A stretch of 64,000 nt of DNA, taken from the IMG/VR virus record IMGVR_UViG_3300029309_000013, positions 15,314 through 79,313 of that record. One strand, written 5' to 3'. The stretch comes from a virus. Below, one piece after another: positions 11,496-54,496 of this stretch (positions are counted from its first letter, which is position 1; each line of letters opens with the position of its first letter). The notes beneath the pieces were generated by a model. The model was not told the origin of the DNA, did no database searches, and worked only from the letters and a program-made list of their open reading frames with translations. A program made the position numbers and the translations under genes.

Positions 11496-11499
11496 ATAC

Positions 11500-11528
11500 T
11501 TGACGCCTTATCTAAACCGTGTTATAAT
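11500..11528 (+). promoter_or_regulatory. strong sigma70-type promoter of the glycosylation operon
   Basis: TTGACG-17 nt-TATAAT with extended -10 TG. Confidence 0.8.
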
Positions 11529-11557
11529 GATAGCATAAATTAGATAAGGTGTTTTTT

Positions 11558-14046: not shown

Positions 14047-14052
14047 TAAAAG

Positions 14053-31233: not shown

Positions 31234-33033
31234 ATGCCTAAAGGTAAAAACATTAATATAAATTACACTAGTAGAGATTTTGACTCTATTAAGAGAGATC
31301 TGGAAGAGTACGCTAAAAGACATTACCCAGACACCTACAAGGATTTTAGCGCCTTATCCGTAAACTCATTAATCCTTGACTCTGTAGCTTATGTTGGTGA
31401 TATCTTGTCTTACTATGTAGACTACCAGGCCAATGAGTCTTTTTTGGACACCTCCATTGAGAGAGCTAACATAAGAAAAATATCCAGGTCTCTTGGTTAT
31501 AAATTTTCTGGTAAACCAAATGCCTATGGTCAAGTTGCCTTATTTTGCTTAATACCTGCTGATGAAGATGGGATTGCACCAAACGCTAGTTATTATCCCA
31601 TAATTAAAAGAGGAACTTCTTTTACAAATGCAAATGGCGCTACATACACACTAACTGAAGATGTTAGGTTTGATAGTGATACAACTGAGGTTGTTGCTGC
31701 TAGATTTGATTCCACATCCGGTCAAACAACATTTTTTGCAGCCAAGAACTATGGCCAAGTGGTGTCTGGGGTTTTTCAACAATCAACCGCTGATTTAACA
31801 AACTCAACGTTTAGAAAATTTAGAAAAATTAAAGTTGGTGACGTTAACACCTCAGAGGTTGTTTCTATAAAAGATTCTGATGGGAATGAATATTTTGAAG
31901 TTGACAACCTTTCACAAGAAGTTGTGTTTAAAGAGGTCACAAATAAATCAGCAGCCTCTGATGGTGTTAGGTCAATTATGAAACCGTTTATAGCCACTAG
32001 GAGATTTATTGTTGAACAAGACGACACAGGGACCTATGTCCAGTTTGGATTTGGTGATGAATCAAACGAGCCAGAGGGCCTTGCAGATCCATCTAAACTA
32101 GCTATTAAAATGCATGGAAAAAGAGAGATATCATCCTTAACGTTTGACCCAACTCAATTGCTAGGAACCTCAAAGCTTGGTTTTTCTCCACAAAATACAG
32201 TCTTAACAATTGTTACAAAAGTTAACGACTCAGCAAATATCAATTCTGCTGTTGATTCTCTAAGAACAATAAAGTTTAGGAATATAGATTTTGATAACAT
32301 ACAGGCACTATCAGCCCCCTTGGTCAGACAAGTTCTTAATTCAATTGAGGTCACAAATGAAGAGCCGATTATAGGCGGCGACTCTACTATGACCAATGAA
32401 GAAATTAAGCAAAATGCAAAAACCTATTATGCATCTCAAAGCAGGGCTGTGACCAAGCAGGATTATGAATCACTGGTGTATAGTATGCCTGCAAAATTTG
32501 GTAAAATAAAAAGAGTCAATGTTGTTAATGACCCATCATCAACAAATAGAAGAATAGCAATGTACCTAATATCGGTCGATAAAAATGGAAGATTAACAAC
32601 AGCAAACAGTAGAATTAAATTAAATGTTAAGAACTGGTTATCAAGCTATCAATCACTTAATGATAGAGTTGATATTTTTGACGCTAAGATAGTAAACTTT
32701 GGTATTGATTTTAAAATAACTGTAGATGAGAGATATAGTCAATATGATATTGTTGGTCGCTGTGTTGAAAAGTTAAAACAAGAGTATTCTAACCAGCTTT
32801 ACATTGGCGAACCTGTATCTATCACAAACTTATACTCTGTCCTTGGAAAAGTCGAGGGTGTCGCAGACGTTAAAAACGTTAATGTTATACCGAAAAAAGG
32901 CACTAATTATTCAGCGACTAGATTTAATTTTGATGAAATGAAAAGCACTGATGGTACTTTTATTAAGACACCAAAAAATGTTATAATGGAGTTAAAATTT
33001 CCAAATGCAGATATTAGAGGAAGGATTGCATAA
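31234..33033 (+). CDS. baseplate wedge subunit gp6-like (baseplate J family)
   Basis: YTSRDFDSIK..L, DF...AYVGDILSYYVD.QANESFL, LGYK, FGFG, SQSRAVTKQDY. Confidence 0.88.
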   Translation: MPKGKNININYTSRDFDSIKRDLEEYAKRHYPDTYKDFSALSVNSLILDSVAYVGDILSYYVDYQANESFLDTSIERANIRKISRSLGYKFSGKPNAYGQVALFCLIPADEDGIAPNASYYPIIKRGTSFTNANGATYTLTEDVRFDSDTTEVVAARFDSTSGQTTFFAAKNYGQVVSGVFQQSTADLTNSTFRKFRKIKVGDVNTSEVVSIKDSDGNEYFEVDNLSQEVVFKEVTNKSAASDGVRSIMKPFIATRRFIVEQDDTGTYVQFGFGDESNEPEGLADPSKLAIKMHGKREISSLTFDPTQLLGTSKLGFSPQNTVLTIVTKVNDSANINSAVDSLRTIKFRNIDFDNIQALSAPLVRQVLNSIEVTNEEPIIGGDSTMTNEEIKQNAKTYYASQSRAVTKQDYESLVYSMPAKFGKIKRVNVVNDPSSTNRRIAMYLISVDKNGRLTTANSRIKLNVKNWLSSYQSLNDRVDIFDAKIVNFGIDFKITVDERYSQYDIVGRCVEKLKQEYSNQLYIGEPVSITNLYSVLGKVEGVADVKNVNVIPKKGTNYSATRFNFDEMKSTDGTFIKTPKNVIMELKFPNADIRGRIA

Positions 33034-34460
33034 TGATTAAAAGATATTTTGCAGATGCTGATAATACTATCTCTAATGCCTTTGATGAGTCACTAAGCAC
33101 TAGGGCCACTGGATCAAACATGGGCCAGTCCGACATACTTGAAGTTTTCTCAATATATGCGCAAGTTTCTAACTCTTCAGGCTTATCCTCTGAATTATCA
33201 AGAGTTATAATACAGTTCCCAATGTCTACAGTATCATCGGATAGAAATGCCGGAACGGTGCCTTCTAATGCGTCATATTTTTTAAAACTATACAATGCCG
33301 AGCATCCATTTACATTACCTAGACAATATAATCTTGAAGTATTAGCAGTTTCTGCTTCATGGCAGGAAGGCCTTGGCTTGGACATGGATAATTACACTGA
33401 CTTAACATATGATGTTGTAGGCTCGAACTGGATAAAAAGGTCTGGTTCAACCTCCTGGAGTAGCCAAGGGGCAGACACACATGCCTCTCCAATATTTAAT
33501 CAAAATTTTGACGAAGGAACAGAGGACCTAGAAGTAGATGTAACATCTTTGGTAAATCAGTGGCATGCAGGAACTAAAGAAAATTATGGCTTTATGGTGA
33601 GACTATCCTCTTCTCTAGAATCTCAAGCTAAATCTTATTATACAAAAAAGTTTTTCTCTCGAAGCTCTGAATTTTTCTTTAAAAGACCTGTTCTAGAGGC
33701 ACGTTGGGATAGTTCAATAAGAGACGATAGGGCAAATTTTTACGCTTCATCATCTCTCTCCCCCGCTGAAGATAATCTTAACACTCTTTTTCTCTATAAT
33801 TATTCTAGGGGCAGATTGGCTAACATACCTGCAATTGGAACTGGGGAGATTTTTGTTAATCTACACGAAACACTGGGCGGAGATCCTAGTACTCTAGCCG
33901 TAAACACACCAGCAACTGGTGGATATGTTTCAACAGGTATATACTCCTGCTCAGTAGGAGTGGATACTACTGCGACCAACATACGAGATGTTTGGTTTTC
34001 TGGTAGTACTCAGTTTTTCACAGGCTCTATAGTGGTAAAAAGGCAGGAGGTCGAGCAGTATGTTACTGATTCTGACTATGTTTTATCAATGCCTGGTCTT
34101 AAAAAAGAATATCAATATGAACAAACTCATAAACTTAGACTTTACGCAAGAGAAAAAAAATGGTCACCTAGTATTTTTACAACAGCCACAACAATTCCTG
34201 CTAGTTTAATTTTTGAAAGTGCTTCTTATGAAATTTTTAGAGCTATTGATGGAGAGACAGTTGTGCCTTACGGTACCGGGTCCTCTCAACATACCAGATT
34301 ATCTTATGACGTTTCAGGTAACTATTTTTATCTTGATACTTCTGTTCTTGAACCTAATTATACATACGGAATACGTTATTCTATATATAATTCGAATGCT
34401 GCTAGCTATGAAGAGCAGCCATATACTTTCAAGATAAGAGTAGTTAAAAATGAGTATTAA
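33033..34460 (+). CDS. baseplate/tail structural protein (DNRLRE-like beta domain)
   Basis: ADNTI...SRVIIQF...W.EG.G...DVTSLVNQW....NYGFMVR...RPVLE pattern; rich in S/T-G/A/S-S tripeptides. Confidence 0.6.
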   Translation: MIKRYFADADNTISNAFDESLSTRATGSNMGQSDILEVFSIYAQVSNSSGLSSELSRVIIQFPMSTVSSDRNAGTVPSNASYFLKLYNAEHPFTLPRQYNLEVLAVSASWQEGLGLDMDNYTDLTYDVVGSNWIKRSGSTSWSSQGADTHASPIFNQNFDEGTEDLEVDVTSLVNQWHAGTKENYGFMVRLSSSLESQAKSYYTKKFFSRSSEFFFKRPVLEARWDSSIRDDRANFYASSSLSPAEDNLNTLFLYNYSRGRLANIPAIGTGEIFVNLHETLGGDPSTLAVNTPATGGYVSTGIYSCSVGVDTTATNIRDVWFSGSTQFFTGSIVVKRQEVEQYVTDSDYVLSMPGLKKEYQYEQTHKLRLYAREKKWSPSIFTTATTIPASLIFESASYEIFRAIDGETVVPYGTGSSQHTRLSYDVSGNYFYLDTSVLEPNYTYGIRYSIYNSNAASYEEQPYTFKIRVVKNEY

Positions 34461-37400
34461 GGATTTATTTGGGCGCAAAGTAAAAAGTTATGATGAGCTA
34501 AGCCAGGACGTAGAGTCCCCAGAGTTCATTGATAAAGAAGTTGAGGAGAGAGGGACATTTATTCCTCCTATTGACTTCTCTACGGCCTCAAATTTTGTTT
34601 CCTACGGATCTGCTGAGCTTTACTACAAAAATTCGCTAGAGAGAATTTATGGAGAATATCCATACGATGGATCTCAAAAAGAAAAGGTTGAGTTTCAATT
34701 ATCTTCATCTTATTTGGATAGGTATCTTTTTGATAACAAATACCCTAAGAGTACTGGGTTTGGAGTGTTTGGTCAATCTGGTCAAGCAACTGGAACTTCA
34801 ACTGGCTATGGTACGTCATACTCCAGCAGAGAGTACGTATATATTCCTGGTGGGGTTAGGGTAGGGAAAGACTTTTCTGAGACTGCTAGGTTATCGACAG
34901 CCTTTGAGCAAAATGCAGTTTATGATGCAGATAATAAAAGACAAAAAGTTTTTCCAGTTGATCTTTCTGTAGGTACAACAGTTGAATTTTGGCTTAGAAA
35001 ACAGACAACCCCTTCGACTGGTACAAAAGAGGTCATTTTAGATCTGTGGAATGGTGTTGCCTCTGGATCCTCAGATTATGCTAGGATGACCATAGAGATA
35101 GATCTCAGCTCTACATCTGGTGCGGCTTTTAACGCAACTATAGCACAAGGACAACAGGCTGTTAATGCAGTGGGGTTTAAAAGGCAAGATATCAGCACCC
35201 CCTCAGTAAATCCAGCGTCGCTAACTTCCTGGAATCACTACGCAGTATCTTTTATTCAAACATCTATTGATAAGATCAAAACTAGATTTTATGTTAATGG
35301 TGATTTGAATTTAGAACAAGATCTTACCTTGGCTTTTGGCGGCGCCAATATTAACTTCTCTGGGCTTGTAAATGCTTTTATTGGTGCTTTACAGACCAAC
35401 CATACAGCAGAGACACAATCTCAGGGAGATGGTAAACTAATAGCTGATATAGACGATTTTAGATTTTGGAAAACAAGACGAACCTCTAGGCAAATTAAGA
35501 TTAATTGGAATCGTCAAATAGGCGGCGGTGCAAACACTGATGACAATACGGTTGACTTGGGACTTTACTATAAATTTAATGAGGGTATCACCACAGACGC
35601 GACAACAGACTCCACAGTTTTGGATTACTCTGGTAGAATAGCCAATGGATCGTGGACAGGGTACCAATCGTCTTCAAGAAATACGGATTCCGCCTTTGTA
35701 CTTTCAGGGTATGGCTCTGAGCCTGGTGATCCAATTATATATGCAACACACCCAAGTGTTTCTGCTTTGATCACCGAGATGCAAATTTCAGGCTCAGAGC
35801 ATGATGCTGAATATGGTAATAGACTGTATCATACACTACCAAGGTGGGTCATTGAACAAGATCAACAGAACGAAAAGAATCTAGAAAAAATATATCAGAT
35901 TATAGCAACATATTTTGATCAACTGCATACACAAATAACGGCATTATCAACACTTAAAGATAAGACATATTATCAGGATAACGTTAAGGCGCCCCCTTTT
36001 GGTAGAAGATTGTTGGAAGAAAAAGGATTTGTAACATCAGATATACTTGTAGACAGTGATATATTAGAGTTGTTTAGCAACAAGGCTCTAGACTCCCAAA
36101 CATTTACACAAAACATAGACGAGATTAAAAATAGAATATATATAAACATCTATAACAACCTCGAGGCTATTTTAAAGTCTAAAGGCACAGAGAGGTCAAT
36201 TAGAAACTTTATTAGATGTTTTGGTGTTGATGATGAAATTATCAAACTTAATGTATACACAGACGAAGGTATGCATTATTTTTCTGATAAAGTAAGAGAG
36301 AATTCATCACGAATAAGATATATTGATTTTAACGAGGAACAATATTCATCAGCGACAATTTTTCAAACCTCTTCCCTAAACAATCCAAACACGTTTATAA
36401 GTGGATCACTGGTCAGTAAGCTTGAGCAATATAGCGCATTTACTTTTGAAGCTGACTTAATAGTCCCTTTTAAAATACCAGAAGGTCAAACTGGCTTTTA
36501 TCATACCCCATTTTTATCTTCATCAGTATTTGGTTTTCACGAAGCCAGGCCAGCAGATCCTTCTGATTATACATGGGAGACAAACGAAAAAGCAAATTTA
36601 CAAGTTTATCTGGTAAGAAATACAAAAGACTCACCAGACGCAAGATTTGTAATTGAGAACCAGGATGGCTCAATACTTTTAGAATCTGACTATGTTAAGG
36701 GTATATACGATAATCAGCACTGGAATCTTTCTTTAAGAATCAAGCCGGACACATATCCATATGCTAATGTGGCCACAAACACAACACCCTCAGCCAGTAT
36801 TGAGTTTTATGCAGTTAATCATAATTTTGGCGAACTGGAGAATGAAATATTATTAACTGCCTCCGTATCATACGCTTCAGGATCAGCATATCTTTCAAAC
36901 CCAAAGAGGGTGTATGCTGGTGCTCATTTACAGAATTTTACAGGATCGGTGATTGAAAATACTGACGTAGAGATTGGAGCAGTACGAGCCTGGTTATCTT
37001 ACGCAGATAATGATGTTATTAAACAACACAACTTGGACCCAATGAATTATGGTTTATCAAAATCAGAACAGTCCGACAATATTTTTACCATTGATAATAA
37101 GCAAATACCATCCAGTGAGCTTTCTATTTTACATTGGCAGTTTGATACAGTCACTGGATCAGATGGGTCCGGCAATTTTATTGTAGAGGATTTCTCAAGT
37201 GGATCAACTGATACTATATATGGTTGGCCAGACAACATCATAAGACGAGAACATCGGGCAAAAGGTTTTGGATTTGGCGCTAATAAAACAAGTTTTGCAA
37301 GACATGAAAACGTATTTTCTATGAAAAAACAGTTACCTGAATTGTCTTATAATTTTGATGCGATCACAATTAAAGGTGATGAAGAAATAAATTTCATAAA

Positions 37401-40400
37401 AGATGAAGACGTTAGTGATAGTTTCTTTATTTTAGAAAAGAGTATATATGCAATTGTGTCCGAGGAGATGTTAAAAACATTTTCTACTATTCAAGAGTTT
37501 TCAAACTTATTTGGACACAGTGTCGACAGATATAGGATGAACTATAAATCCCTTGATCACGCAAGATCTATTTTCTTTGAAAGAGTTGAGCAAGACATAG
37601 ATTTCGAAACGTTCATAAATTACTATAGATGGATAGATTCATCAATCTCTACAATGGTTGAACAATTATACCCAGCCTCTGTGAGACATAGTGAGGGAGT
37701 AATAGACGTTGTTGAGTCTCATATTTTAGAGAGAAATAAGTATCAAAATAAGTTTGGTTTACTGGAAAGACTCTCAAGTACTGAGGGTTCTGTTAGGGGT
37801 GTAAATGAGCTTAATTATAATTGGGCTGTTGGACATGCCCCAGATTATAAAAACTTCATAAATCAAAACGAATTTAGCTTAAGAATAGCACAAGCTAGCT
37901 CTGATATATCTCGTTTTAAAATAACATCAACAGAGCAGCACTTCGATAGGTTTGTTACATCAATGTGGGTTAAGTTGGAATCAAACCCTGCCGGTAATGC
38001 AGAAATCAAATATATGGTTCTTGCCGACAGTAACCCAAATAAAGAATTTGTTCTTGAAACTTCCGGTAGTCATTTCCGAGCGAGATCAAAAACAGCAGAT
38101 CAGACAAAACTACACACCACGAATAATAGTTTCACACTGACCAACTGGAATCATGTTGCTTTCTATTTCGAAGGAACATCATGGTCAACAGCAGCAGTTA
38201 ATATATATGTTAATGGTGTTGCACAAACAACTACTGTAACAACCCCCGCTACTGGTACTGATAACGTACTAGCCACAGTCCAACAGATGTTTATACGACA
38301 AAATCAGACATCTGCTGTTAAGCTCGATGAGCTAAATATCATAACAGGCTCACTAACTACAGACCAATTCTCTGAGCTTTACAATGGCGGAAAATACTTT
38401 AATGTAGCCGAGGATTTTTCTAATAGGTTGGATTTAATAGCTAGCTATAGACTTGGTGACGCCCCAGGTGACGACACCGCTACAGTGCTAAAAGACGTTA
38501 GAAACAATAATGATTTTGTACCAAGCACAGTTGGGTCTCTTGCGGCTGCATCTTTTGTTGGTGATGTTTTTGATGCTGGTGCGATTGCTAGTGATAGTGA
38601 GACAGTAGAAAATACTCATTGCTTGTGGCAGAGAGAAAGAAAAGAGAGAACAGACATAACGGCTAGAGAGACAATCAGGCAAGTATTTGTAACAGACATC
38701 AGTTCCTCAATTCCTAATTTAGCACAGCCAGATAAGACAATTTATCAAGGTTCAACTTACGCCACCAGAAGATTAAGTAAACCATATAGAGTTGGTATTG
38801 AACTTAAAAATACAATTCATGGCGGTATTAATTACGCTCCTAAAAAAGATAGAGATTTTATAGCAACTGTTGTAAACCCACAGGGCGGTGTATTCCCATC
38901 TGGAACTCCAAGAAATGTATTTGTAGTAGGTACGGGTCAAGGTGCTGGTATTAACGAGCAGCAAAAATGTGATGATCCAAAGCCGCCCAATAATAAAGAA
39001 TATTATGATTTTATAGCACAAGCTGGTAAATATTCTGACGACTCTAATGGTCAGCCATTATCAGAGCTAGACGGCTTTGTCTACAAACTAGAGGGTAAAA
39101 AATACTATCCACTAAACTTAAAGAGGGCGACCGTTGAAACAGGATATAACCAACAGATTAATCGTCTATTTAAGTCTGACGCTGTGATCGTAAATTTACA
39201 CTCGGACACAACTGATTTTACAAATGAAATACCAATGCAGGGGCCTTTTACAAACACCCACGTTGGAGGCCACCAATCTCGTCACGTCCCACTCAATAGG
39301 CACGACACAACATTAGTTACTGAAGGCGGCGGAGCTACTTTAAACAATTTGGATGATCAATACTCCAGACCAGAAAGATGGAGACTAAAGCTTGGAGAGC
39401 ACCCCGTTGAAGACAATCGTGATGGTGCTATGGGCTTTGTTAGTCCGTCATACGGAGGTGATCTTGCTGGAGGTGGTTACATAGATACATCTCGTGAATG
39501 GGCAATATACTATCGCGATGGTAGGATCAAAAGGGCAGTAAATGTTCAGAACATCCAAGATAGAGTTAGCGATAATGTTTTGGGTAACTACAATAAGCTT
39601 TATCAGGTATTTTCAACCTTTGGTAATAAAAACAAAAGAACATTCGTAAAAGCCGGAGGATTATCGTTACCAGCCAATCTTTTAAGTTTGCCGCAAACAA
39701 CACAGCCTCTTACCAGATTTGATAGACAAAGCACCTTTGCAACACCAGAGAATAACCTAACTAGTTCTGAAGCGATTATTACAACTAGATTTTCCGCACC
39801 AGGATCTAGAGACACTGGTACTCGTGGCTTTCTTGATATAGCTAGTGGAGAAAAATCAGTATATAATTCAATTAACTTTAGAAACCTTGCTGTGCGTGGA
39901 TCCGGCTCTGAACCTGCTGAGGAAATGAGAGTTGTTGATCAGCTAAATGAGGGTAGAGGTCTGCAAACACTACTATCTTTGCATTCTGGAAGATTTGGCC
40001 ATGACCCAACTTTTGGATCAGTTGTAAGTTCAACCTATGTTACCAAGCCATCATTCCATAAACAACACAGGAACGATTTATATAGAAGAACTACTGCTGA
40101 TATTCAATCCGTTGGTTTATTGAGAGTCTCAAGCTCTAACGATATATATCTTGAGACCGATAACCTTGGTGGATTTGATACGCAAACATCTACCATCTCT
40201 ATGTGGCTTAAGTTTGATGGAACACCAGATTCTGGAAACTTTACGATGTTTGAAACAAATAAAATACTTATTAGATTTGTAAGCGCGACATCAATACAGC
40301 TCACCCTTTTTGACGATGTAAGTTCTTCAAAGTTTTCTTTACATACATTTACCATAAGTCACGATATAACCAAGTGGAATCATTATAATTTTAATATCAA

Positions 40401-41046
40401 TACATTCTCATCAGGTAATTTTGTTCTATATGTAAATGCAGACACCGCATACACTTCTTCAGTTTCATCACTAAACTCACCAAGCTTAATGCCCGAATTA
40501 AGAACTGTTAGGTTTTTAACCGGATCTGCTGTAACTGGTGGTGTTAATATAATGAATTTGTCCCTTTTCTCTCAAATGGTTAGTGATCCAACAAACAGAA
40601 CGACCCTATATAACCACACAAACGGAAGTGAAATTTCTAGCATCCCCGGACTTACTCATTTTTGGTCTTTAGGTGAAAATGAAGGTGTTACTGTTGGAGA
40701 GAATATAACCAATGGATTTAAATTTTCAGAAACCTTCACTGCAGCGACCAAACAAGTCACAGCCATAGTAACAGGTAGTGATTTACAGGGTACCGATGGC
40801 TTCTATACTGGGGAGGGAACTGGATTTGCAGATGACACATTACGTAACAACGCCCTAATTACTTCACCACTGCCTGCTTCTGATTTCCAATACAGTTGGG
40901 TTATGAGTACAATTAGTGGTTCAAACTGGAGAGATAATCAAAAAGTGTTTGGCTATGCCCCAAGAGATGGTCTATTAAGTTCATCAGCAGGGATTACAGA
41001 GGCGATCACATTCCCATCATCATCAGCATTATTCGGAGAGGATTAA
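34450..41046 (+). CDS. giant baseplate/tail protein with several LamG/concanavalin-like domains
   Basis: TVEFWLR...WNHYAV...FYVNG...IDDFRFW and SMWVK...WNHVAF...YVNG...LDEL repeats; KSKGTERSIRNFIRCFG baseplate-type motif. Confidence 0.7.
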   Translation: MSIKDLFGRKVKSYDELSQDVESPEFIDKEVEERGTFIPPIDFSTASNFVSYGSAELYYKNSLERIYGEYPYDGSQKEKVEFQLSSSYLDRYLFDNKYPKSTGFGVFGQSGQATGTSTGYGTSYSSREYVYIPGGVRVGKDFSETARLSTAFEQNAVYDADNKRQKVFPVDLSVGTTVEFWLRKQTTPSTGTKEVILDLWNGVASGSSDYARMTIEIDLSSTSGAAFNATIAQGQQAVNAVGFKRQDISTPSVNPASLTSWNHYAVSFIQTSIDKIKTRFYVNGDLNLEQDLTLAFGGANINFSGLVNAFIGALQTNHTAETQSQGDGKLIADIDDFRFWKTRRTSRQIKINWNRQIGGGANTDDNTVDLGLYYKFNEGITTDATTDSTVLDYSGRIANGSWTGYQSSSRNTDSAFVLSGYGSEPGDPIIYATHPSVSALITEMQISGSEHDAEYGNRLYHTLPRWVIEQDQQNEKNLEKIYQIIATYFDQLHTQITALSTLKDKTYYQDNVKAPPFGRRLLEEKGFVTSDILVDSDILELFSNKALDSQTFTQNIDEIKNRIYINIYNNLEAILKSKGTERSIRNFIRCFGVDDEIIKLNVYTDEGMHYFSDKVRENSSRIRYIDFNEEQYSSATIFQTSSLNNPNTFISGSLVSKLEQYSAFTFEADLIVPFKIPEGQTGFYHTPFLSSSVFGFHEARPADPSDYTWETNEKANLQVYLVRNTKDSPDARFVIENQDGSILLESDYVKGIYDNQHWNLSLRIKPDTYPYANVATNTTPSASIEFYAVNHNFGELENEILLTASVSYASGSAYLSNPKRVYAGAHLQNFTGSVIENTDVEIGAVRAWLSYADNDVIKQHNLDPMNYGLSKSEQSDNIFTIDNKQIPSSELSILHWQFDTVTGSDGSGNFIVEDFSSGSTDTIYGWPDNIIRREHRAKGFGFGANKTSFARHENVFSMKKQLPELSYNFDAITIKGDEEINFIKDEDVSDSFFILEKSIYAIVSEEMLKTFSTIQEFSNLFGHSVDRYRMNYKSLDHARSIFFERVEQDIDFETFINYYRWIDSSISTMVEQLYPASVRHSEGVIDVVESHILERNKYQNKFGLLERLSSTEGSVRGVNELNYNWAVGHAPDYKNFINQNEFSLRIAQASSDISRFKITSTEQHFDRFVTSMWVKLESNPAGNAEIKYMVLADSNPNKEFVLETSGSHFRARSKTADQTKLHTTNNSFTLTNWNHVAFYFEGTSWSTAAVNIYVNGVAQTTTVTTPATGTDNVLATVQQMFIRQNQTSAVKLDELNIITGSLTTDQFSELYNGGKYFNVAEDFSNRLDLIASYRLGDAPGDDTATVLKDVRNNNDFVPSTVGSLAAASFVGDVFDAGAIASDSETVENTHCLWQRERKERTDITARETIRQVFVTDISSSIPNLAQPDKTIYQGSTYATRRLSKPYRVGIELKNTIHGGINYAPKKDRDFIATVVNPQGGVFPSGTPRNVFVVGTGQGAGINEQQKCDDPKPPNNKEYYDFIAQAGKYSDDSNGQPLSELDGFVYKLEGKKYYPLNLKRATVETGYNQQINRLFKSDAVIVNLHSDTTDFTNEIPMQGPFTNTHVGGHQSRHVPLNRHDTTLVTEGGGATLNNLDDQYSRPERWRLKLGEHPVEDNRDGAMGFVSPSYGGDLAGGGYIDTSREWAIYYRDGRIKRAVNVQNIQDRVSDNVLGNYNKLYQVFSTFGNKNKRTFVKAGGLSLPANLLSLPQTTQPLTRFDRQSTFATPENNLTSSEAIITTRFSAPGSRDTGTRGFLDIASGEKSVYNSINFRNLAVRGSGSEPAEEMRVVDQLNEGRGLQTLLSLHSGRFGHDPTFGSVVSSTYVTKPSFHKQHRNDLYRRTTADIQSVGLLRVSSSNDIYLETDNLGGFDTQTSTISMWLKFDGTPDSGNFTMFETNKILIRFVSATSIQLTLFDDVSSSKFSLHTFTISHDITKWNHYNFNINTFSSGNFVLYVNADTAYTSSVSSLNSPSLMPELRTVRFLTGSAVTGGVNIMNLSLFSQMVSDPTNRTTLYNHTNGSEISSIPGLTHFWSLGENEGVTVGENITNGFKFSETFTAATKQVTAIVTGSDLQGTDGFYTGEGTGFADDTLRNNALITSPLPASDFQYSWVMSTISGSNWRDNQKVFGYAPRDGLLSSSAGITEAITFPSSSALFGED

Positions 41047-44000
41047 ATGGCCAAATATTATCAAGACTTTGTTGGACTGAATACATTTGTGTATATTCCC
41101 AATGGATATTATTTACCTGGAACATCAATAAGTGCAGCCAATATATCTAACAGACCAGAAAGTAAGACTGCTGGTGGTCTATTTTATATGCAACAGAATA
41201 CTATTGGTGGATATTCACTAGAGGGCGGAGAAGTTATTTTTCCATTAGTCGAGGACAGCAATGCAGGTGAGTTTATTAAGAATTTTTTATTCCCCTTTGA
41301 TTTACCAAATACCGCATCTTTTTACAACGCGATGCATGTTTATCACAATGGACCTTATGGATACCCAGTCTGGAGACAAGTTAGGGCCTCTCATAACCCA
41401 CTATCTAGAAAGCAAAGGAAAGAGAATATTTTCACCTTTGTTTCTGAACCAGGCGAGAAATTTCAAACACAAATAAACGGAAAGTTTTTTGATCGAACAA
41501 ATAGATTTGGATCTATTAATGTCTTCAAAGAACCAGTTGTTCAAAGCACAGAATATCCATTAGAGTTATACGCCGGTATTGATACTTTCTCCCATGCTCT
41601 TAACGAACAGGTCAATAGGAACATTGTTCTGAGAACCACTTTTGGTAACGAAATCGTTTTCTTTGCTAACGATGAAATTAATCGTCATTACGGCACTGAA
41701 CTGATAACCGATGCGAACTATGAAGATCTCAAGGGGCTGTATTTAGATGGCGGTCTTGAAGATGCAGGTTCTCCACTTAATAGTTTTAAGTTGTTAAGAT
41801 ACAAGCAATCTGTGTGGCCAAAAGCAGAGCATTCTTTCATGCACTCAACAAGATCAAGAACTTTCTATGTTAACACATTCTGGAGAGACTTGAGATTAGA
41901 CAGAACAGAGACTGGGGTTAGTAACAAGCAAGGAGCAACGGTCCCATTCCAATCAATGTGGCCACTCGATGCTGCAGCGGATTTTGAAACTAGAAGTCAA
42001 CCAAACGCAGCAACCGGTGCAAACCGAGGGTTTTTCTATTATATTGGTGGTCGATCTGGCTCTTTAGATCAAGGAGGGTTTAACACTGGGGACGATACAG
42101 AGACAAATTCCGGCACTCCTAACGCTTCTCTTGGCGGCAGTGGTATATTGCAAAACTCATACGCTCAAGTCTGTCGTGGGTCTTACCCTTCAAACACGGC
42201 TGCGTTTAATAGCTTTGGTGGTCAACCGTCAGAAGCTCTAACTGGATCATGTTACTATTCCAGAAGACATACGCTAAATTCTATAGAATCTGTGGTTTCT
42301 CCTTCTGGTATGTATATTGAAGAAACGGGCAGCTTAAGCGAAGTAGCAAAAGCTAATCTATTTGAGGGTGTGGCCGCATGGGATGCTGGTAGGCAATCCG
42401 GCAAGAATCCATTTTATGACTCTTATGAAAGCTATGGATCAGACATTAAATTGAAAGGGCAGGGCTATTCAATCATCCCAGAATTCAGAATTAGTTCTCA
42501 CGTTGAGACCTATGAGACCAAAGGTGTTACTGAGGAATTAAAGGAAATTTTTGAATTATCTGGTGCCCTAGAACAAAACACAACAACTAGCGGATCTTCA
42601 ACGTTTTACAAAGTTTTATCAAATAGTGATTTTATGCAACACTTTGAATTAATCAAGAAGGACCACAAAGATTTTGCAAACCCTATAGCAATATCATTGA
42701 AATGTAAAGCAATTAAGAAGTTTTTACCTTATGAGGGCTTTTACCCAGCAGAAAGAACCGTTAATTTAGCAGAGCAATTTAACAACTCTTATGGGTCTAA
42801 TATTTTTACTTACATTAATGGAGTACAACAAGAATCAAGTGATAATTTTGCAAAACAAGCTATCATTGAGCCATTATTTGCACCCGGTATTTTGTTTAAT
42901 ACGATTAAATCTGGCGTTGCCTGTGATTATCCTTTAATTTTTGCTAATGGCGGAATGGGAGTCGAAGAAAGAAATTCAGACGGCGACACTTCTGGGGATA
43001 GAATAAATTTTCTGATCCAGTCATCTTCGTATAACTCGGCAGCGACAGATTTGTTTAGTACATTTATTAGAATACCCTTTGAGGCGATTGTTGAACCAGA
43101 GAGGTTTTTATCCACCAGGGAGCTTCAATTGATGGGGTCACACCCTTTTGAGCTAGCGGGACAAGACTTAACAGCTCAATGGTCAGGGGATGGAGATTCA
43201 TTATATACAAAAATGGCCAATAACTTTCTTGCAGAGACTATTGATTTCTTTATGAAGGACAAAAGAATTACAACATTAGCATCTTTACCTTCTGAAAACC
43301 CAGCCTTTGGAAACGCAGAGTCTGGCTCTTTCTATGCTATGAGAATCAAAATGAAAAGATCAAGGAATAAGCCTAATGACTTTTTGCCTGGATTTGGATC
43401 AGACAAGGTTATCCCTCCTCAAGATTTATACCCAAGGTTTGGTGTTAAAGAAAATTTCACTATGTACTCTAGACCATCTGCTTTTGGGCCACCAATTGAT
43501 GGCGGTGGAGATACGACTGGTAGTTACGGAAATTCAGCCCAGTTTACAATCAGTGGTTCTGATAGTCTATGGGGCTATAATTTTCCTTATACACCACCAT
43601 ACTATTACGGAGAAGGGTGGTGTGACTTAATCTTTGAAGCAACAGAAACTAGAAAATATACCATTGATGAGATCTTATCAGCAGTAAAGGAGTTCCCTTA
43701 TTATACTAGGTTCTGGTGGAATGGTACCATGGACGCTCTCAGGGATGTAAATGGATATGCTGGAAGCGGTCAGTTAACCTCAGACATAGGTATTCGTACT
43801 GGAGCATACGCAGGGTACATTAATTCACCTTGGCATACTCTAATAACATCTAGTATACATATTGGTTCAACTTTAACATGCTCTGATGGCTCTAATTACA
43901 CTCAAGGCAACTGGGGGGATGCAATCCCGTCATCATCGTTTGGTAGCTACCCGGATAGAGTTACTTATCCTGAAACTGCTGGTAGTAAATACCTTGCATC

Positions 44001-45309
44001 TCACCCATACTACCTAAACTATAATGCAATGCAGATTAATTCTAGTGTTAATTTATTTGGTAAGGGTGTTGCTCGTATAACCAGAACCACAGATTCCGGA
44101 GAAGAACAGATCGTTAGTATCGATACAGAAGCAACAAGTGAAAGAAAATCAAGATGGATCATTCAGCCAAAATTTGAAACACCAATGTTAAACTTTAACA
44201 GTTATACAAATTTAACTACTGACGAGAACCTAACTTGTCCAACATACGCCTCAGAGTCAGTACCCAGAGGTATGTGGCATCAATACGGACTAGTTGAAGA
44301 AGACCCACAGAAAGGCGTTTTTCTAGAGATAGGTGATATCCCCCCTACTTGGTGGAAGGGCGCACTAGGTGTGAATCAAGGACTTCAGAATGCTAAGATA
44401 AAATCATTGGCTGATCTTTGTGGCTTCTCAAAAGATCCAGTAAAACTAGGCCAAGTTGGACAATCTAGGGAAATATCAGAGGCTGTTGTGGCCGTACCAT
44501 TTGTCGAGAGAGAAGGCACGAGACAATTTTTCTCACTTTCCAGGAGAGATATTGAAAGAGCAAAGACGGTGTTGAATTTAGAAGTTGAGCCTGGTGTTTT
44601 TGTAGCTTTAGGAGATAAGGGAGTAAACGTTTCAGAAGGCATACTGGACATGGTTAGAAATATGCAAAAATACGTATTTCCTCCGTCAATGGATTTTGTG
44701 AAGACGACTGAAATGGATCCGTTTGCAATGTATGTATTTGAATTCAAGCATGAACTAGATAAACAGGATTTAGCCGACATGTGGCAGAACCTCCCCCCAA
44801 AAATTGGTAGATCTTTTGAGGAGGCTGAGGTAACAATAGCTCATCCATTGTTAGCAAAAGAATTGCTCGGCGGAGGATCCGTTCTTTCCGAAGGCATACT
44901 ACAGAAAAATGCAAAAGGAAATGATGTACCAACAGATATTCAGTGGATGATTTTTAAGGTAAAAAGAAAGGCAAAAACAAATTATTTTGATAAAGTTGTT
45001 ACAAAAAAGGGTGAAACCACAGATAGTTCTAGTATAATTTTGGAAAATGCAACAGGGGAACTTGGAGAACCAGAAGGTTTCACGTACAACTGGCCATACG
45101 ATTTCTTTTCGCTTGTAGAACTAGTTAAACTAGATGCAGAGGTGATGTTTTCTAATGTTGATCCAACTACTGAAGACAGTGATCCAAGGCTGATAAAAAA
45201 GACAAGAGAACAAGATAGAGCATTAAGAGCAGGTCTACCTAGAAGCACAAAAGCAAGAAATAGTTTTGCTGGGCTAGGCGACAAAAAGGATGACGGTTCC
45301 AGGAGATAG
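41047..45309 (+). CDS. large virion structural protein (1420 aa)
   Basis: Long ORF in the tail cluster; G/S/T/Y-rich. Confidence 0.6.
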   Translation: MAKYYQDFVGLNTFVYIPNGYYLPGTSISAANISNRPESKTAGGLFYMQQNTIGGYSLEGGEVIFPLVEDSNAGEFIKNFLFPFDLPNTASFYNAMHVYHNGPYGYPVWRQVRASHNPLSRKQRKENIFTFVSEPGEKFQTQINGKFFDRTNRFGSINVFKEPVVQSTEYPLELYAGIDTFSHALNEQVNRNIVLRTTFGNEIVFFANDEINRHYGTELITDANYEDLKGLYLDGGLEDAGSPLNSFKLLRYKQSVWPKAEHSFMHSTRSRTFYVNTFWRDLRLDRTETGVSNKQGATVPFQSMWPLDAAADFETRSQPNAATGANRGFFYYIGGRSGSLDQGGFNTGDDTETNSGTPNASLGGSGILQNSYAQVCRGSYPSNTAAFNSFGGQPSEALTGSCYYSRRHTLNSIESVVSPSGMYIEETGSLSEVAKANLFEGVAAWDAGRQSGKNPFYDSYESYGSDIKLKGQGYSIIPEFRISSHVETYETKGVTEELKEIFELSGALEQNTTTSGSSTFYKVLSNSDFMQHFELIKKDHKDFANPIAISLKCKAIKKFLPYEGFYPAERTVNLAEQFNNSYGSNIFTYINGVQQESSDNFAKQAIIEPLFAPGILFNTIKSGVACDYPLIFANGGMGVEERNSDGDTSGDRINFLIQSSSYNSAATDLFSTFIRIPFEAIVEPERFLSTRELQLMGSHPFELAGQDLTAQWSGDGDSLYTKMANNFLAETIDFFMKDKRITTLASLPSENPAFGNAESGSFYAMRIKMKRSRNKPNDFLPGFGSDKVIPPQDLYPRFGVKENFTMYSRPSAFGPPIDGGGDTTGSYGNSAQFTISGSDSLWGYNFPYTPPYYYGEGWCDLIFEATETRKYTIDEILSAVKEFPYYTRFWWNGTMDALRDVNGYAGSGQLTSDIGIRTGAYAGYINSPWHTLITSSIHIGSTLTCSDGSNYTQGNWGDAIPSSSFGSYPDRVTYPETAGSKYLASHPYYLNYNAMQINSSVNLFGKGVARITRTTDSGEEQIVSIDTEATSERKSRWIIQPKFETPMLNFNSYTNLTTDENLTCPTYASESVPRGMWHQYGLVEEDPQKGVFLEIGDIPPTWWKGALGVNQGLQNAKIKSLADLCGFSKDPVKLGQVGQSREISEAVVAVPFVEREGTRQFFSLSRRDIERAKTVLNLEVEPGVFVALGDKGVNVSEGILDMVRNMQKYVFPPSMDFVKTTEMDPFAMYVFEFKHELDKQDLADMWQNLPPKIGRSFEEAEVTIAHPLLAKELLGGGSVLSEGILQKNAKGNDVPTDIQWMIFKVKRKAKTNYFDKVVTKKGETTDSSSIILENATGELGEPEGFTYNWPYDFFSLVELVKLDAEVMFSNVDPTTEDSDPRLIKKTREQDRALRAGLPRSTKARNSFAGLGDKKDDGSRR

Positions 45310-45315
45310 TAAAAA

Positions 45316-46269
45316 ATGACATTCTTTAATAAGAAAGAAGATGTAATCAAGATTGAGCTAACTCCCTACGGCAGACATCTTCTCTCGAAAGGAAAGTTAA
45401 AGCCTGCCTATTATGCCTTTTTTGATGATGATATATTGTACGACATAGCTGCCACTAACGGAACTGAAGAGCAAAACGAGATAGTTCCAAGAATCCTAGA
45501 GCAAACACCAAGAATTAGGCCACAAACTTGCTTAGAGTCACCAGAAATAAGCATATTTGAGAGCGACATGCTTTCTAGTGATTTAAATAGTAGACCAAAA
45601 ACTAGAGAAAAAGTCAACTTCTTAACAGACCCACTAGGCTCATCTGATAACACTAAAGATACAGCTCCAGGCTTTAGATCAGTGTTTATCCAGGGAGAGA
45701 TAGACTCTGTTCAGGCCGCCCTATCTAGTTCATATGGAGATAAGCAAATACCTCAAATTAATGCAACCATAGAATATAAGATGCAAATTAGAAACGAGAA
45801 AAGTGATCCCCTCGTTAGGGGCAGAAGAGTGTCCCCGAGGACCCCAGCATCTCTAATATATTCAGACGGAACTTATGTTGATATTGACGAAGAACAGATC
45901 ATAACTTTTCTAAAAGAAGTTGATGGCTTTGAAGCCAAAGATGGATTTGAGGTTGAGGTATATTTATTTGACGATACTAACGAAGAGAACTTGATACCGC
46001 TAAAATTTACTCCAAAGTTTGACTCAATAATTAATGGTATTTTAGTCGAACCCGAAGAGCAGGAGGTTGATATAACTCCCCAATATGTCGAGCATTATGT
46101 TAACTTTACAACAGACTCAGCGATTCCAGACCGACAAATTTGCAAAGGAATATCTAAGCTTAAGGCAGAAAACATACATATTGATATTCAAGTGGAATGC
46201 GAAGAGATAGAAACTACAGAGTTTGATATTTATGGAACTAGAGTTACTGATGTGGAGGTTTGTGAATAA
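45316..46269 (+). CDS. tail/baseplate structural protein (tail-collar-like N-terminus)
   Basis: IELTPYGRHLLSKG...YYAFFDDDILYD; paralogous to ORF 51276. Confidence 0.6.
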   Translation: MTFFNKKEDVIKIELTPYGRHLLSKGKLKPAYYAFFDDDILYDIAATNGTEEQNEIVPRILEQTPRIRPQTCLESPEISIFESDMLSSDLNSRPKTREKVNFLTDPLGSSDNTKDTAPGFRSVFIQGEIDSVQAALSSSYGDKQIPQINATIEYKMQIRNEKSDPLVRGRRVSPRTPASLIYSDGTYVDIDEEQIITFLKEVDGFEAKDGFEVEVYLFDDTNEENLIPLKFTPKFDSIINGILVEPEEQEVDITPQYVEHYVNFTTDSAIPDRQICKGISKLKAENIHIDIQVECEEIETTEFDIYGTRVTDVEVCE

Positions 46270-51238: not shown

Positions 51239-51245
51239 AAGAAAT

Positions 51246-51252
51246 CTATTTA
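51246..51252 (+). promoter_or_regulatory. putative late promoter CTATTTA
   Basis: Intergenic, 23 nt upstream of ATG 51276. Confidence 0.55.
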
Positions 51253-51275
51253 ATATAAGAATTTGGGAGATTTAT

Positions 51276-52217
51276 ATGGCTTTTTTAGACAACAGTGGAG
51301 ACATCATACTAGATGTAGTCCTTACAGATCACGGAAGAAAACTATTAGCTAAGGGCGATGGTTCTTTTCAAATTACTAAATTTGCCCTTGGTGACGAAGA
51401 AATAGACTACTCTCTGTACAACAAAACACATCCTAGTGGTAGCTCCTATTATGATTTAGAGATCCTACAAACACCAGTCCTTGAGGCCTTTACTAATAAT
51501 GCCTCCTCTATGCACTCAAAGCTTATGACTTACGATAATCTTGAGCTGCTGTTTTTGCCTGTTCTTAGACTCAATGAGGTGGAGAGATCAAACAAGAGAG
51601 ATTCTAACGCGACTTTCCTTGTTGCGGTTGATGCACAAACAGAAGATAATGATGGATCCACAACCACTTTGACTGGCGTTGGTAAAGACTCTGCCGGTGA
51701 TATTAGGCAAGGATTTATTTTTGGCGAGACCCTGAATGGAGCTGTTATCAAGATCGACCAAGGCCTTGATACTACTGAGATATCTCCTAAAAGAAGATTG
51801 GATGCTGATTTGATTGAGACTAGCTTTACTGTTCAAATCGACAATAGGCTTGGAAAGCTTGTTGATACACAAGGCACAGAGGCCGCTCCAGATTTCATTG
51901 ATGATGATAACATTGCGTACTATACTGTAGATCTGGGCGATACTTTTGTTAGTCAAATAACCAATGATAGCACTGGCGGTAGTGAAGTAATCAGAGGACC
52001 ACGAGGAACAAGGATGGAGTTTAGAATTAAGTCCTCCCTTGATCTTAACACTAGTACTTTTTTGTTTGAACAATTAGGTAGCACTACCACTATGGACAAC
52101 AGAACAGCCTCTGGTACATCGAATGTTTTCTTTATTGATACAAATGTAAAGATCACCGGTATGAAAACAGGCGCACAGATTGATGTTCCTGTTAGATACG
52201 TTAAGTTAGCAGAATAA
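51276..52217 (+). CDS. tail/baseplate structural protein (tail-collar-like N-terminus)
   Basis: DVVLTDHGRKLLAKG...ITKFALGDEEIDY. Confidence 0.65.
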   Translation: MAFLDNSGDIILDVVLTDHGRKLLAKGDGSFQITKFALGDEEIDYSLYNKTHPSGSSYYDLEILQTPVLEAFTNNASSMHSKLMTYDNLELLFLPVLRLNEVERSNKRDSNATFLVAVDAQTEDNDGSTTTLTGVGKDSAGDIRQGFIFGETLNGAVIKIDQGLDTTEISPKRRLDADLIETSFTVQIDNRLGKLVDTQGTEAAPDFIDDDNIAYYTVDLGDTFVSQITNDSTGGSEVIRGPRGTRMEFRIKSSLDLNTSTFLFEQLGSTTTMDNRTASGTSNVFFIDTNVKITGMKTGAQIDVPVRYVKLAE

Positions 52218-52226
52218 GGATTTACA

Positions 52227-53321
52227 ATGACTTTTAAACCATTAAATGAAAATGATATCGTAGCGACAAGAACTCTGCTACATGAAGCTATTCCACTCAC
52301 TGGTACAATTGTATCAGGGACATATGACGATGGGAATATCAAAGATTACACTCACGGAATGTTTCAGTCTGTTTATGACTATCCATTTTTAAGTTCTTCT
52401 GCAAACCACATCTTTGATATTACAATTGGGATTAATCAAAGTAGCCCTCTTTATAGTTCAGTTTCAGCACAGCAATCTAAAAAAAGAAACATCTATAATC
52501 AAATGGCTCAAGTTTTAGTTGGTTACGATGCAACCGGCTCTGTTAGGAGATTTGACGAAGATGGTGATTTAATAGGGACAACTGATGATAAGCTAAATGA
52601 TGTTATTATTTTGCCTTTCTCGCGATTGTTAACTAAAGATGAGATCAAAAAAGAAACCTTTGAGATGACCCTGGGTGTAAACCCTGCCTTTGCAGAGGAC
52701 GGTTCTGTGTTCAATAAGCTAGTAACAATTTCAGACCTTAGTGCTTCCACAGAGTACAGAGTAAATTCACCTGCTGGGGAGTATGGAATTCTTTATGCAA
52801 CTGCGTCTGTAAATGATATCCTTGACCCTAGTAGCACTCACACTTCATCATTTGGCGGCGATCCTTACTGGCGCGCTGGTCTAATCTATTACCAGGCAGG
52901 TGTTGTAGTCCTAACTGGTTCTGTTTTTGGCTCCTTACTTACTCCGAATAGTTCTAGTATTGAATTTGATTCTGGTCTTAACTTCACGGGTTCTTTAACT
53001 GGATCAAACATTGATTTGATTGCAAACGGTTTACGAAACAGAATTCAAAACATACAGTTTAACAATACAACAGAATTAAATTCAACTGTATATTTCTGTC
53101 GTGTTAATCACAATGAGTTTAACTACTCTGCGAACCCAACTTATTTAAGTGGCTCAAAAATCAGAGTTAAAACTAAATCAACTGATAATCCTGTGGCTTA
53201 CATCACCTCCATTGGTCTATACAATGATAATAACGAGTTAATGGCTTCCGCCAAGTTATCAGAACCTCTTAAGAAGTCTTCTGATAACGAATACACGCTT
53301 CGTGCTAGAATTGACTATTAA
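52227..53321 (+). CDS. tail/baseplate structural protein
   Basis: C-terminal NYSANPTY...YITSIGLYNDNNELMASAKLSEPLKK...RIDY; paralogous to the next ORF. Confidence 0.65.
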   Translation: MTFKPLNENDIVATRTLLHEAIPLTGTIVSGTYDDGNIKDYTHGMFQSVYDYPFLSSSANHIFDITIGINQSSPLYSSVSAQQSKKRNIYNQMAQVLVGYDATGSVRRFDEDGDLIGTTDDKLNDVIILPFSRLLTKDEIKKETFEMTLGVNPAFAEDGSVFNKLVTISDLSASTEYRVNSPAGEYGILYATASVNDILDPSSTHTSSFGGDPYWRAGLIYYQAGVVVLTGSVFGSLLTPNSSSIEFDSGLNFTGSLTGSNIDLIANGLRNRIQNIQFNNTTELNSTVYFCRVNHNEFNYSANPTYLSGSKIRVKTKSTDNPVAYITSIGLYNDNNELMASAKLSEPLKKSSDNEYTLRARIDY

Positions 53322-53338
53322 TCCAATGAGTAACAAAC

Positions 53339-54496
53339 ATGACGTATTATCGATTTACAGACGACGATCTGTTCACCAACACTATTGAGGCATACCCAGA
53401 TTTAAGTTTCTTTATCCACAGTGGGTCAATATACGTCAATAACATAACCCCAATATCAGGAACACACTCAGACAACATCCTGGGTGTTCCAAGGGGCTTT
53501 ATATCCCTGTATGAATATAATATCAACAGACCAGAGGATCAAAGAATCCACCCTTTTGTTACAAAAGATGCTAACAAAACAACGTTCAAGACAATTTCTG
53601 CCGCTGATTGGAACACTCAATTTGGCTATGGAGGATCTACGATTACTTCTAGCTACAATTTGTCGGCGTCTATCACTAGATATAGAATAACCGGACCTGC
53701 AGACCCTGATTATCCAAGACTTAGGGCACTTAGAAATTCTATAAATAATTACTCCTATCTATCACCACATTATAACTTTGATACCTACTATTCGGATTCA
53801 GAAGTAAATATGATTTGTGTTCCATCAATTTTTTATGGATCATCAATTAGAAAAGGTTCAGTTAGTCTCAAGTGGTATGTTTCTGGAACAGTCACTGCAG
53901 AGGCAACTGATTATCGTTACAACGGAGAACTAGTTCAGGTTTCAGGCTCTACAACCGGATCCGTCGTTGGTACCGTTCTGTACAATGAGGGCATCTTTCT
54001 GTTGACCTCCTCGGCAACACTTGATAGTACCTCTATTGGTAACCTTGTAGATAACTCAACCGCCGGAAACCCAAAATGGATTTATTTTGGTAGAGGTGCA
54101 AATGACGGACTAACTGTTGCATCAACAACCTTATCTGCATCTTTTGATATGGAGTTCCAAGGAACCAATCACATACAGACGCTCACAATGCTCTCTAAGG
54201 CTCCAAAATATCAACTTAATCATTCCAATAACCCAACTTATTTAAAGCACTCTGGGAGCAATATTGGGAACGCTATGACTAGTTCTTATGAGTATGTGGA
54301 GACACCAAAAGAGATTAAAAACATTGTATCCTCAAGTTTTACAGATACGACCCCAACTTTTGATAAAGAAACTTATATTTCAAAAATCGCAATCTATGAT
54401 GAAGATAAAAATGTAATTGGCTTTGCAAAGCTTTCTACTCCCGTAAGAAAAACGGAAGAAAGAGAATATTTGTTTAAATTAAAATTGGACATTTAA
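53339..54496 (+). CDS. tail/baseplate structural protein
   Basis: C-terminal NHSNNPTY...YISKIAIYDEDKNVIGFAKLSTPVRK...KLDI. Confidence 0.65.
   Translation: MTYYRFTDDDLFTNTIEAYPDLSFFIHSGSIYVNNITPISGTHSDNILGVPRGFISLYEYNINRPEDQRIHPFVTKDANKTTFKTISAADWNTQFGYGGSTITSSYNLSASITRYRITGPADPDYPRLRALRNSINNYSYLSPHYNFDTYYSDSEVNMICVPSIFYGSSIRKGSVSLKWYVSGTVTAEATDYRYNGELVQVSGSTTGSVVGTVLYNEGIFLLTSSATLDSTSIGNLVDNSTAGNPKWIYFGRGANDGLTVASTTLSASFDMEFQGTNHIQTLTMLSKAPKYQLNHSNNPTYLKHSGSNIGNAMTSSYEYVETPKEIKNIVSSSFTDTTPTFDKETYISKIAIYDEDKNVIGFAKLSTPVRKTEEREYLFKLKLDI

Follow-up and report, generated by a model that had tools for sequence, protein, structure and literature searches.

The capsid of chlorovirus PBCV-1 and the fibrils of mimivirus are decorated without the host machinery, by virus-encoded nucleotide-sugar pathways and glycosyltransferases (GTs), and Freeman et al. 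reportedly showed in 2023, by mass spectrometry, that capsid and tail-tube subunits of actinophages are glycosylated. Virion O-glycosylation by phage-encoded GTs is described for mycobacteriophages Che8, Corndog and Myrna in PMC12363180 (citing Freeman et al. 2023). Here, we analyzed a 64,000-nucleotide stretch (hereafter, the window), the final 64 kb of the 79.3-kb viral contig IMGVR_UViG_3300029309_000013 from IMG/VR, in which a serine tripeptide, [ST][GAS]S (broad motif; [ST]GS is referred to as the core), is enriched in 5 predicted distal tail proteins encoded between positions 33033 and 54496, and which also carries a module of GT and sugar-nucleotide genes (Table 1). An initial annotation of the window had proposed that the tripeptide is a sequon read by the phage GTs.

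The proposed system resembles that of the mycobacteriophages in that the phage encodes its own soluble transferases (GT4, GT4' and a GT2 fusion, 11549-15672), which are proposed to act in the cytoplasm on the phage's own virion proteins, placing the glycan on the particle surface. Unlike in the mycobacteriophages, however, the putative acceptors belong to the distal baseplate and the fibres rather than to the major capsid and tail tube, the putative signal is a dispersed tripeptide, the system is predicted from sequence, and the phages infect Bacteroidota, Cyanobacteria and Rhodothermus-type bacteria. A link to the giant viruses is provided by the GT4 protein B736L of PBCV-1, which is among the PDB sequence matches of the first GT of the window (GT4-1), although the giant viruses infect eukaryotes, follow other acceptor rules and are supported by experimental evidence of glycosylation.

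Two bacterial pairs of cytoplasmic enzymes with the GT4 fold offer further points of comparison: GtfA/GtfB, which O-GlcNAcylate serine-rich repeat adhesins, and SdgA/SdgB, which act on Ser-Asp repeats. As in the case of GtfA/GtfB, the window contains an adjacent pair of GT4-like genes (11549-12823 and 12820-14046), which is kept in all relatives and is followed by genes for extending transferases. The analogy to GtfA drawn in the initial annotation nevertheless fails, because the EX7E motif is present in both GT4 proteins, leaving no inactive GtfB-like partner. The GtfA model was not matched, and the match to SdgA (E = 3e-5) fell far short of the cut-off for that model. Furthermore, unlike the substrates of GtfA/GtfB and SdgA/SdgB, the candidate acceptors are not low-complexity repeats, with dispersed sites and neither tandem repeats nor self-hits. 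TibC and Aah glycosylate TibA and AIDA-I, respectively, in the cytoplasm, O-linking sugars to many serines, but not threonines, in the turn loops of a folded beta-helix (PMC4358343). Local sequences in the TibA peptide SASKVIQNSGGAVITNTSAAVSGTN are similar to the phage motif sites (PMC4358343). However, TibC belongs to an unrelated enzyme family, being an iron-binding dodecameric heptosyltransferase acting on a regular 19-residue beta-helix repeat (PMC4358343), whereas the transferases of the window match GT4 and GT2 families only and the sites are dispersed over several folds.

An ordered tripeptide in distal tail proteins

Our recount gave 9, 27, 12, 10 and 10 copies of the broad motif in the products of open reading frames (ORFs, named by their window positions) 33033, 34450, 41047, 52227 and 53339, respectively, exactly as counted by hand in the initial annotation, and reproduced the low counts noted there for the 2341-aa structural protein (1 copy) and SbcCD (0 copies). 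When compared with 1,000 composition shuffles, the 5 proteins displayed z values of 3.2, 5.8, 3.3, 5.9 and 5.2, and none of the 42 other ORFs of the window was significant in this test. The excess also withstood shuffling within segments of 40 and 20 residues (z of 2.7 to 6.0) and shuffling that preserves dipeptides, where the broad motif remained enriched in all 5 proteins (p from 0.000 to 0.037) and the core was marginal in 2 of the 5 (p of 0.06 to 0.07). Of the approximately 8000 tripeptides, a scan of all those with an expectation above 1 placed TGS (16 copies vs 3.0 expected) and SGS (18 vs 3.8) in the top two positions, with 34 copies vs 6.8 expected for the two together; SSS had 16 copies vs 5.6 expected, and SAS, TAS and TSS were only approximately 2-fold in excess. 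Overall, the tripeptide excess is approximately three- to five-fold in the outer tail proteins of this uncultured marine phage and of its distant relatives. Reversed or permuted forms (SGT, GSS, SSG, GSG and SGG) showed weak or no enrichment; thus, the motif has an order. At position 3, serine prevails over threonine by 34 to 10. A hydrophobic residue precedes 54% of the sites (32% background), as had been noticed at the outset, and another is found at +3 in 56% of them (32% background), with both enrichments recurring in all relatives.

Neither DNA repeats nor a shared domain accounts for the motif. As the initial annotation had stated, the sites are not DNA tandem repeats: their codons vary, and the one tandem repeat detected between 33033 and 54496, a 15-bp array at 49178-49219, is unrelated to them. 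All-against-all BLAST of 11 tail proteins revealed mutual similarity only between the products of ORFs 52227 and 53339, plus a 47-residue N-terminal match between those of ORFs 45316 and 51276. The motif excess was absent from the adjoining tail-block proteins of 987, 668, 317 and 313 aa, including the 987-aa neighbour, which contains 10.6% Ser, yet has 1 site vs 3.4 expected. The gp6-like baseplate wedge protein encoded by ORF 31234 marks the proximal boundary of the motif-rich block, and its orthologs in several relatives (G001, immuto and LR756508, introduced below) are likewise motif-poor; from the identity of this protein, it follows that the ORFs from 33033 on are placed where genes for the peripheral baseplate and the fibres would lie. 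None of the 9 tail-block proteins searched (33033-54496) could be assigned to a PHROGs family. An apparent avoidance of the motif elsewhere in the proteome (12 copies vs 25.6 expected in the window) did not recur in 2 relatives, G001 (94 vs 83) and G009 (106 vs 94), and was discarded.

The relatives of this virus in IMG/VR have genomes of approximately 158-203 kb, mostly 185-200 kb, several of which are rated 100% complete. The label of jumbo phage given in the initial annotation is to be corrected in that the record itself is a 79.3-kb contig and these sizes lie around or just below the usual threshold. The nearest cultured relatives, distant but syntenic, are Flavobacterium phage vB_FspM_immuto (hereafter, immuto; isolated on Flavobacterium sp. 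LMO8), Microcystis phage Mel-JY01 and Rhodothermus phage RM378, which grow on Microcystis and Rhodothermus, respectively; an uncultured 484-kb phage, LR756508, is also distantly related and syntenic to the window. For replication, we used 2 complete relatives of approximately 190 kb, G001 and G009, along with the cultured phages. In tail blocks picked by synteny, SGS or TGS ranked first in G001, G009, Mel-JY01, immuto and RM378, and the two tripeptides ranked first to fourth among 1200-3500 tripeptides in these 5 genomes, with per-protein z values of up to 10.6 in Mel-JY01, immuto and RM378. In G001 and G009, orthologs of the 475-aa protein (17 vs 5.0 expected and 8 vs 3.5, respectively), of the 2198-aa protein (29 vs 10.6 and 38 vs 17.6) and of the 364/385-aa proteins were enriched anew; for the G001 ortholog of the 1420-aa protein (6 vs 3.3), enrichment was not clear. 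The gp6-like and 2341-aa proteins of these 2 relatives were motif-poor, as in the window. Among other virion proteins of G001, the major head protein (4 vs 2.2) was not significantly enriched, the portal had 0 copies and the sheath was mildly raised (6 vs 2.4). No comparable enrichment was found in T4 (25 proteins), P2, Flavobacterium phage 11b or Synechococcus phage S-CBS4, ruling out a generic property of tail proteins. Collectively, these results establish the motif signal as genuine and specific and assign it to a deep phage lineage.

Two observations in the relatives concern individual proteins. The UvsX-like recombinase of G001 (132668-133951), which is non-structural, contains 4 copies vs 0.8 expected, probably by chance or owing to P-loop-type sequence, and illustrates that single-protein z values near 3.5 occur outside the tail. 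The 1053-aa 'tail spike' of immuto (25537-28698) is 16.7% Ser and carries 60 motif copies; it displays periodic F-[ST]GS-F and [ST]AS-[YF] arrays, with F-[ST]GS-F...GDGSxLTGI arrays in its N-terminal part, and its C-terminal part contains SHAEG repeats matching the BpaC/Hep_Hag beta-roll (BpaC, E = 6e-10).

Across alignments of 120 homologs each of the 53339 and 52227 proteins (50-96% identity), S[AS]S109 and T[SGA]S223 of the former and SSS56 and T[GAS]S230 of the latter were present in 120/120, SAS266 of the former in 118/120 and TGS103 of the latter in 112/120. Thus, several sites are retained in 94-100% of the homologs, other sites being lineage-specific, and the exchanges stay within the motif class (TSS/TGS/TAS at 223 and SAS/SSS at 109 of 53339; TGS/TAS/TSS at 230 of 52227). 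Conservation is modestly higher for the motif serines (0.66-0.76) than for the remaining serines (0.50). Of the 27 sites of the 2198-aa protein, 15 are retained at 46% identity and 5 at 32% identity, but the orthologs themselves contain 29 and 38 sites, indicating that site density is maintained through turnover.

AlphaFold2 models of the 53339 and 52227 proteins, which are of medium confidence (mean predicted local distance difference test scores of 62 and 67, respectively), locate the sites to a hairpin turn of 2 residues (S28-G29), to short inter-strand loops (203-208; 101-105) and to strand termini (223, 266, 192 and 230). The initial annotation expected surface loops; many sites lie in hairpin turns or at strand ends of the models, a geometry that would suit an exposed acceptor loop as well as a turn with a structural role. 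Fold searches with the 2 models using Foldseek and VIA-align gave only weak matches to beta-sandwiches and phage parts (best Z of 5.9 and 4.4), and a profile search of the PDB with the 2 proteins gave no match. In the 2198-aa protein, the TGS at residue 1299 appears to take the place of the 'NRA' turn, an exposed element that follows the last strand in the Laminin_G_3 consensus.

The glycosyltransferase module

The GT and nucleotide-sugar gene assignments of the initial annotation are borne out at 11549-19742 (Table 1). Orthologs of GT4-1 are encoded by immuto, Mel-JY01, RM378 and LR756508, and a further match, with 24% identity, is to a transferase of actinophage TJE1. The second enzyme, GT4', belongs to a family restricted to viruses: among 50,697 phage records, tblastn identified orthologs in immuto and Mel-JY01 only, along with a weak match to RM378 p014 (E = 3e-5). 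The Atlas clusters of GT4' are 100% viral, with PF00534 recognized in 40-90% of the members and some members fused to GT2; the structure neighbours of GT4' in the Atlas include viral proteins of 650-665 aa which join the GT4' fold to a GT2 domain. Such fusions imply that GT4' and GT2 work together. The EX7E motif of GT4' takes the form GEG[YFW]G-x4-E in 5 of 6 aligned sequences; the exception is a third, divergent GT4 encoded by G009, with D-S-F-G.

Immuto and Mel-JY01 share the core order of PD-(D/E)XK nuclease, GT4, GT4', GT2 and methyltransferase, which is reduced in RM378 (p012-p014, p016-p017). The sugar-nucleotide genes beside it vary between phages. The methyltransferase also comes after the transferases in immuto, Mel-JY01 and S-CBS4. 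The GT4 pair was detected through PF00534 in all 10 large relatives, and GT4' in 20/20 further contigs covering the region, so that, in addition to the 3 cultured phages, 30/30 relatives with coverage of the region carry the module. In 17 of 37 further fragments, both GT4' and the flanking nuclease are missing because the module region lies off these fragments. Given the conservation of the module across phages with hosts from 3 phyla, we infer that its substrate is intrinsic to the phage. No ThyA-type hydroxymethylase was detected in any of 5 complete relatives; a role of the module in classical DNA glycosylation is thus unlikely.

In the cyanosiphovirus S-CBS4, genes for a GT4, a GT2-like 'galactosyl transferase' and an S-adenosylmethionine (SAM)-dependent methyltransferase lie between the portal and head-protease genes (9916-12282), representing a candidate head-glycosylation module that occurs without the tail motif.

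Acceptor signal or structural turn

The motif is independent of the fold, occurring in 5 proteins without homology to each other, save for 1 pair, which suggests a trans-acting recognition factor. One plausible and sharply testable possibility is that this factor is the phage's own glycosylation machinery. Under this model, hydrophobic-[S/T]-[G/A/S]-S-hydrophobic, with [S/T]-G-S as the core, would serve as the acceptor signal at beta-strand ends and turns of distal baseplate and fibre proteins predicted to be exposed. The conserved soluble GT4, GT4', GT2 fusion and methyltransferase would act on it in the cytoplasm of the infected cell, drawing on nucleotide sugars supplied by the products of the adjacent, lineage-variable sugar genes, and the product would be a short, possibly methylated, O-linked glycan on the motif serines. 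Such a glycan may contribute to shielding, solubility or host attachment. The sequon proposal of the initial annotation is compatible with the motif statistics, the conservation of the sites, their restriction to the distal tail and the coexistence with the module, but the co-occurrence and geometry tests do not separate it from the other hypotheses. We put the probability that the tripeptide is an acceptor sequon for O-glycosylation by the phage transferases at roughly 0.4. The broader proposition, namely, that a deep, virus-exclusive self-glycosylation system, in which GT4, GT4', GT2 and methyltransferase read a tripeptide sequon at strand-end turns of distal tail proteins unrelated to each other, operates in phages of Rhodothermus, Flavobacterium, Microcystis and uncultured marine hosts, is put forward more tentatively.

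Several observations weigh against glycosylation of the motif. The motif and the module are both universal in the clade, so that their association amounts to approximately one evolutionary event, and no relative devoid of the transferase module was found among the 10 large contigs and 37 fragments searched, leaving co-occurrence without a contrast. LR756508 lacks GT4', yet retains a weak motif signal, and S-CBS4, conversely, has the GT4-GT2-methyltransferase triad but no motif enrichment. The glycan operon has an early-type promoter of the sigma70 kind and lacks the late-type element CTATTTA, which lies upstream of tail genes. Finally, a number of sites do not vary at all and have strand-forming hydrophobic residues on either side, as would structural turns, and S/T-A/G-S turns are structural in the YadA-like beta-rolls that the immuto spike resembles. 

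The latter points lead to the strongest alternative, in which the tripeptide is purely structural, a preferred solution for strand ends and tight turns in beta-rich distal tail modules that was inherited and exchanged within the lineage, and the GT module acts elsewhere, for example, on the host envelope or another glycoconjugate. In the YadA/Hep_Hag left-handed beta-rolls of trimeric autotransporter heads, S/T-A/G-S recurs at turns just as in the phage proteins, and the arrays of the immuto spike, joined to such a roll, demonstrate that these tripeptides can be purely structural. The hairpin turns, short loops and strand termini of the AlphaFold2 models, the complete conservation of several sites, the restriction of the middle residue to G, A or S between hydrophobic flanks, which is reminiscent of a sterically constrained turn, and the early-type promoter of the transferase operon all accord with this explanation. 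Unlike the periodic 14-residue YadA/Hep_Hag repeat, however, the 5 proteins of the window display neither periodicity nor self-similarity, periodicity being found in the immuto spike only. Moreover, the motif carriers are of different fold types without detectable homology, tail and fibre proteins of T4, P2, 11b and S-CBS4 do without the tripeptide, as do the 4 neighbouring tail-block proteins, the sites turn over at maintained density, and the strong bias at position 3 toward Ser, as opposed to Thr, would be unusual in a beta structure. We regard a structural idiom as only slightly less likely than the sequon.

Considerably less likely is recognition of the motif by some other trans-acting factor, with the transferases being unrelated: the sites could undergo a different modification, such as serine phosphorylation or acylation, or a tail-fibre chaperone could dock on the strand-turn elements. 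A motif which is fold-independent, ordered, conserved and confined to late-assembling distal tail parts would suit such a factor as well, and no physical link connects the transferases to the tail proteins. Nevertheless, the window yielded no kinase, acyltransferase or dedicated chaperone that would be a co-varying candidate, and the transferase and methyltransferase module comprises the only conserved virus-specific modification enzymes found. The remaining explanation, a compositional or sampling artefact of Ser/Thr/Gly-rich proteins and a degenerate motif picked after the sequences had been seen, draws on the mere 2-fold excess of SAS, TAS and TSS but is refuted by the global, segment-wise and dipeptide-preserving shuffles, by the leading ranks of SGS and TGS in the unbiased scan and in the 5 synteny-chosen tail blocks and by the lack of enrichment in the equally Ser-rich 987-aa neighbour, and is scarcely credible.

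Genomic setting and biological implications

Nearly all genes of the window are on the + strand, and the GC content is approximately 37%. The primase and SbcCD genes come after the tail block, likewise in Mel-JY01, immuto and LR756508. A tRNA-Arg gene with the anticodon TCT is located among the early genes (4653-4727). The candidate late-promoter element CTATTTA occurs at 5 positions listed in Table 1. The 15-bp tandem repeat AACATCAGGAGGAGG, present in 2.8 copies at 49178-49219, is located at the 3' end of ORF 46269, directly upstream of the ORF 49232 start, and includes a Shine-Dalgarno-like GGAGG. The first approximately 45 residues of the proteins encoded by ORFs 45316-46269 and 51276-52217 are alike (34% identity, E = 0.005), which suggests a common N-terminal attachment module on 2 otherwise different tail proteins.

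Table 1. Positions and properties of the features considered in the window; site counts refer to [ST][GAS]S and core counts to [ST]GS.
Feature	Position	Strand	Remarks
CTATTTA	1471		63 bp 5' of the start of ORF 1534
Sigma70-type promoter, TTGACG-17 bp-TATAAT	11500..11528	+	Before the glycan operon; read from sequence
GT4-1 glycosyltransferase	11549..12823	+	PF00534, 50 bits (cut-off 26.4); EX7E present
GT4', divergent GT4-like glycosyltransferase	12820..14046	+	Weak Pfam matches, below cut-offs; EX7E present
GT2 domain fused to DXD sugar-binding (GT32-like) region	14053..15672	+	PF00535, E = 1e-35; PF04488, E = 2e-4
Non-hydrolysing UDP-GlcNAc 2-epimerase, WecB type	15669..16730	+	TIGR00236, 212 bits (cut-off 210)
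SAM-dependent methyltransferase	16730..17296	+	Methyltransf_25/11 matches; conserved in module
SDR epimerase/dehydratase, RmlC-like cupin and RmlD-like reductase (6-deoxy-sugar route)	17293..19742	+	
2341-aa structural protein	23790..30815	+	1 site vs 3.6 expected; G001 ortholog 0 vs 3.7
CTATTTA, candidate late-promoter element	31208, 51246, 54501		24-30 bp 5' of virion gene starts 31234, 51276, 54525
gp6-like baseplate wedge protein	31234..33033	+	phrog_219, E = 3e-27; 0 sites vs 1.9 expected
475-aa baseplate protein	33033..34460	+	Directly after gp6-like wedge gene; 9 sites, 5 core
2198-aa LamG-containing distal tail/fibre protein	34450..41046	+	Laminin_G_3, E = 3e-26; 27 sites, 13 core
1420-aa tail protein	41047..45309	+	12 sites, 7 core
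364-aa tail protein	52227..53321	+	10 sites; paralog of 53339
385-aa tail protein	53339..54496	+	10 sites; paralog of 52227 (BLAST, E = 4e-8)
CTATTTA	61315		49 bp 5' of the start of ORF 61364

In the literature on immuto, RM378 and Mel-JY01, we found nothing about glycosylation; all three cultured phages have both the motif and the module, which makes the idea directly testable. Homologs of the tail protein families number in the thousands in metagenomes, and, if the tripeptide is indeed a sequon, aquatic phages of a very abundant group would coat their host-recognition apparatus with a self-made glycan, with a bearing on adsorption, resistance to proteases and grazers, stickiness toward marine polymers and the interpretation of receptor-binding protein sequences. 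Such a system would constitute the first case of sequon-directed virion O-glycosylation outside the actinophages and would provide a sequence rule to find and predict glycosylated virion proteins and phage surfaces. If the motif is merely structural, it would still be a sharp marker of the lineage and would point to a turn idiom of tail proteins that has not been described before.

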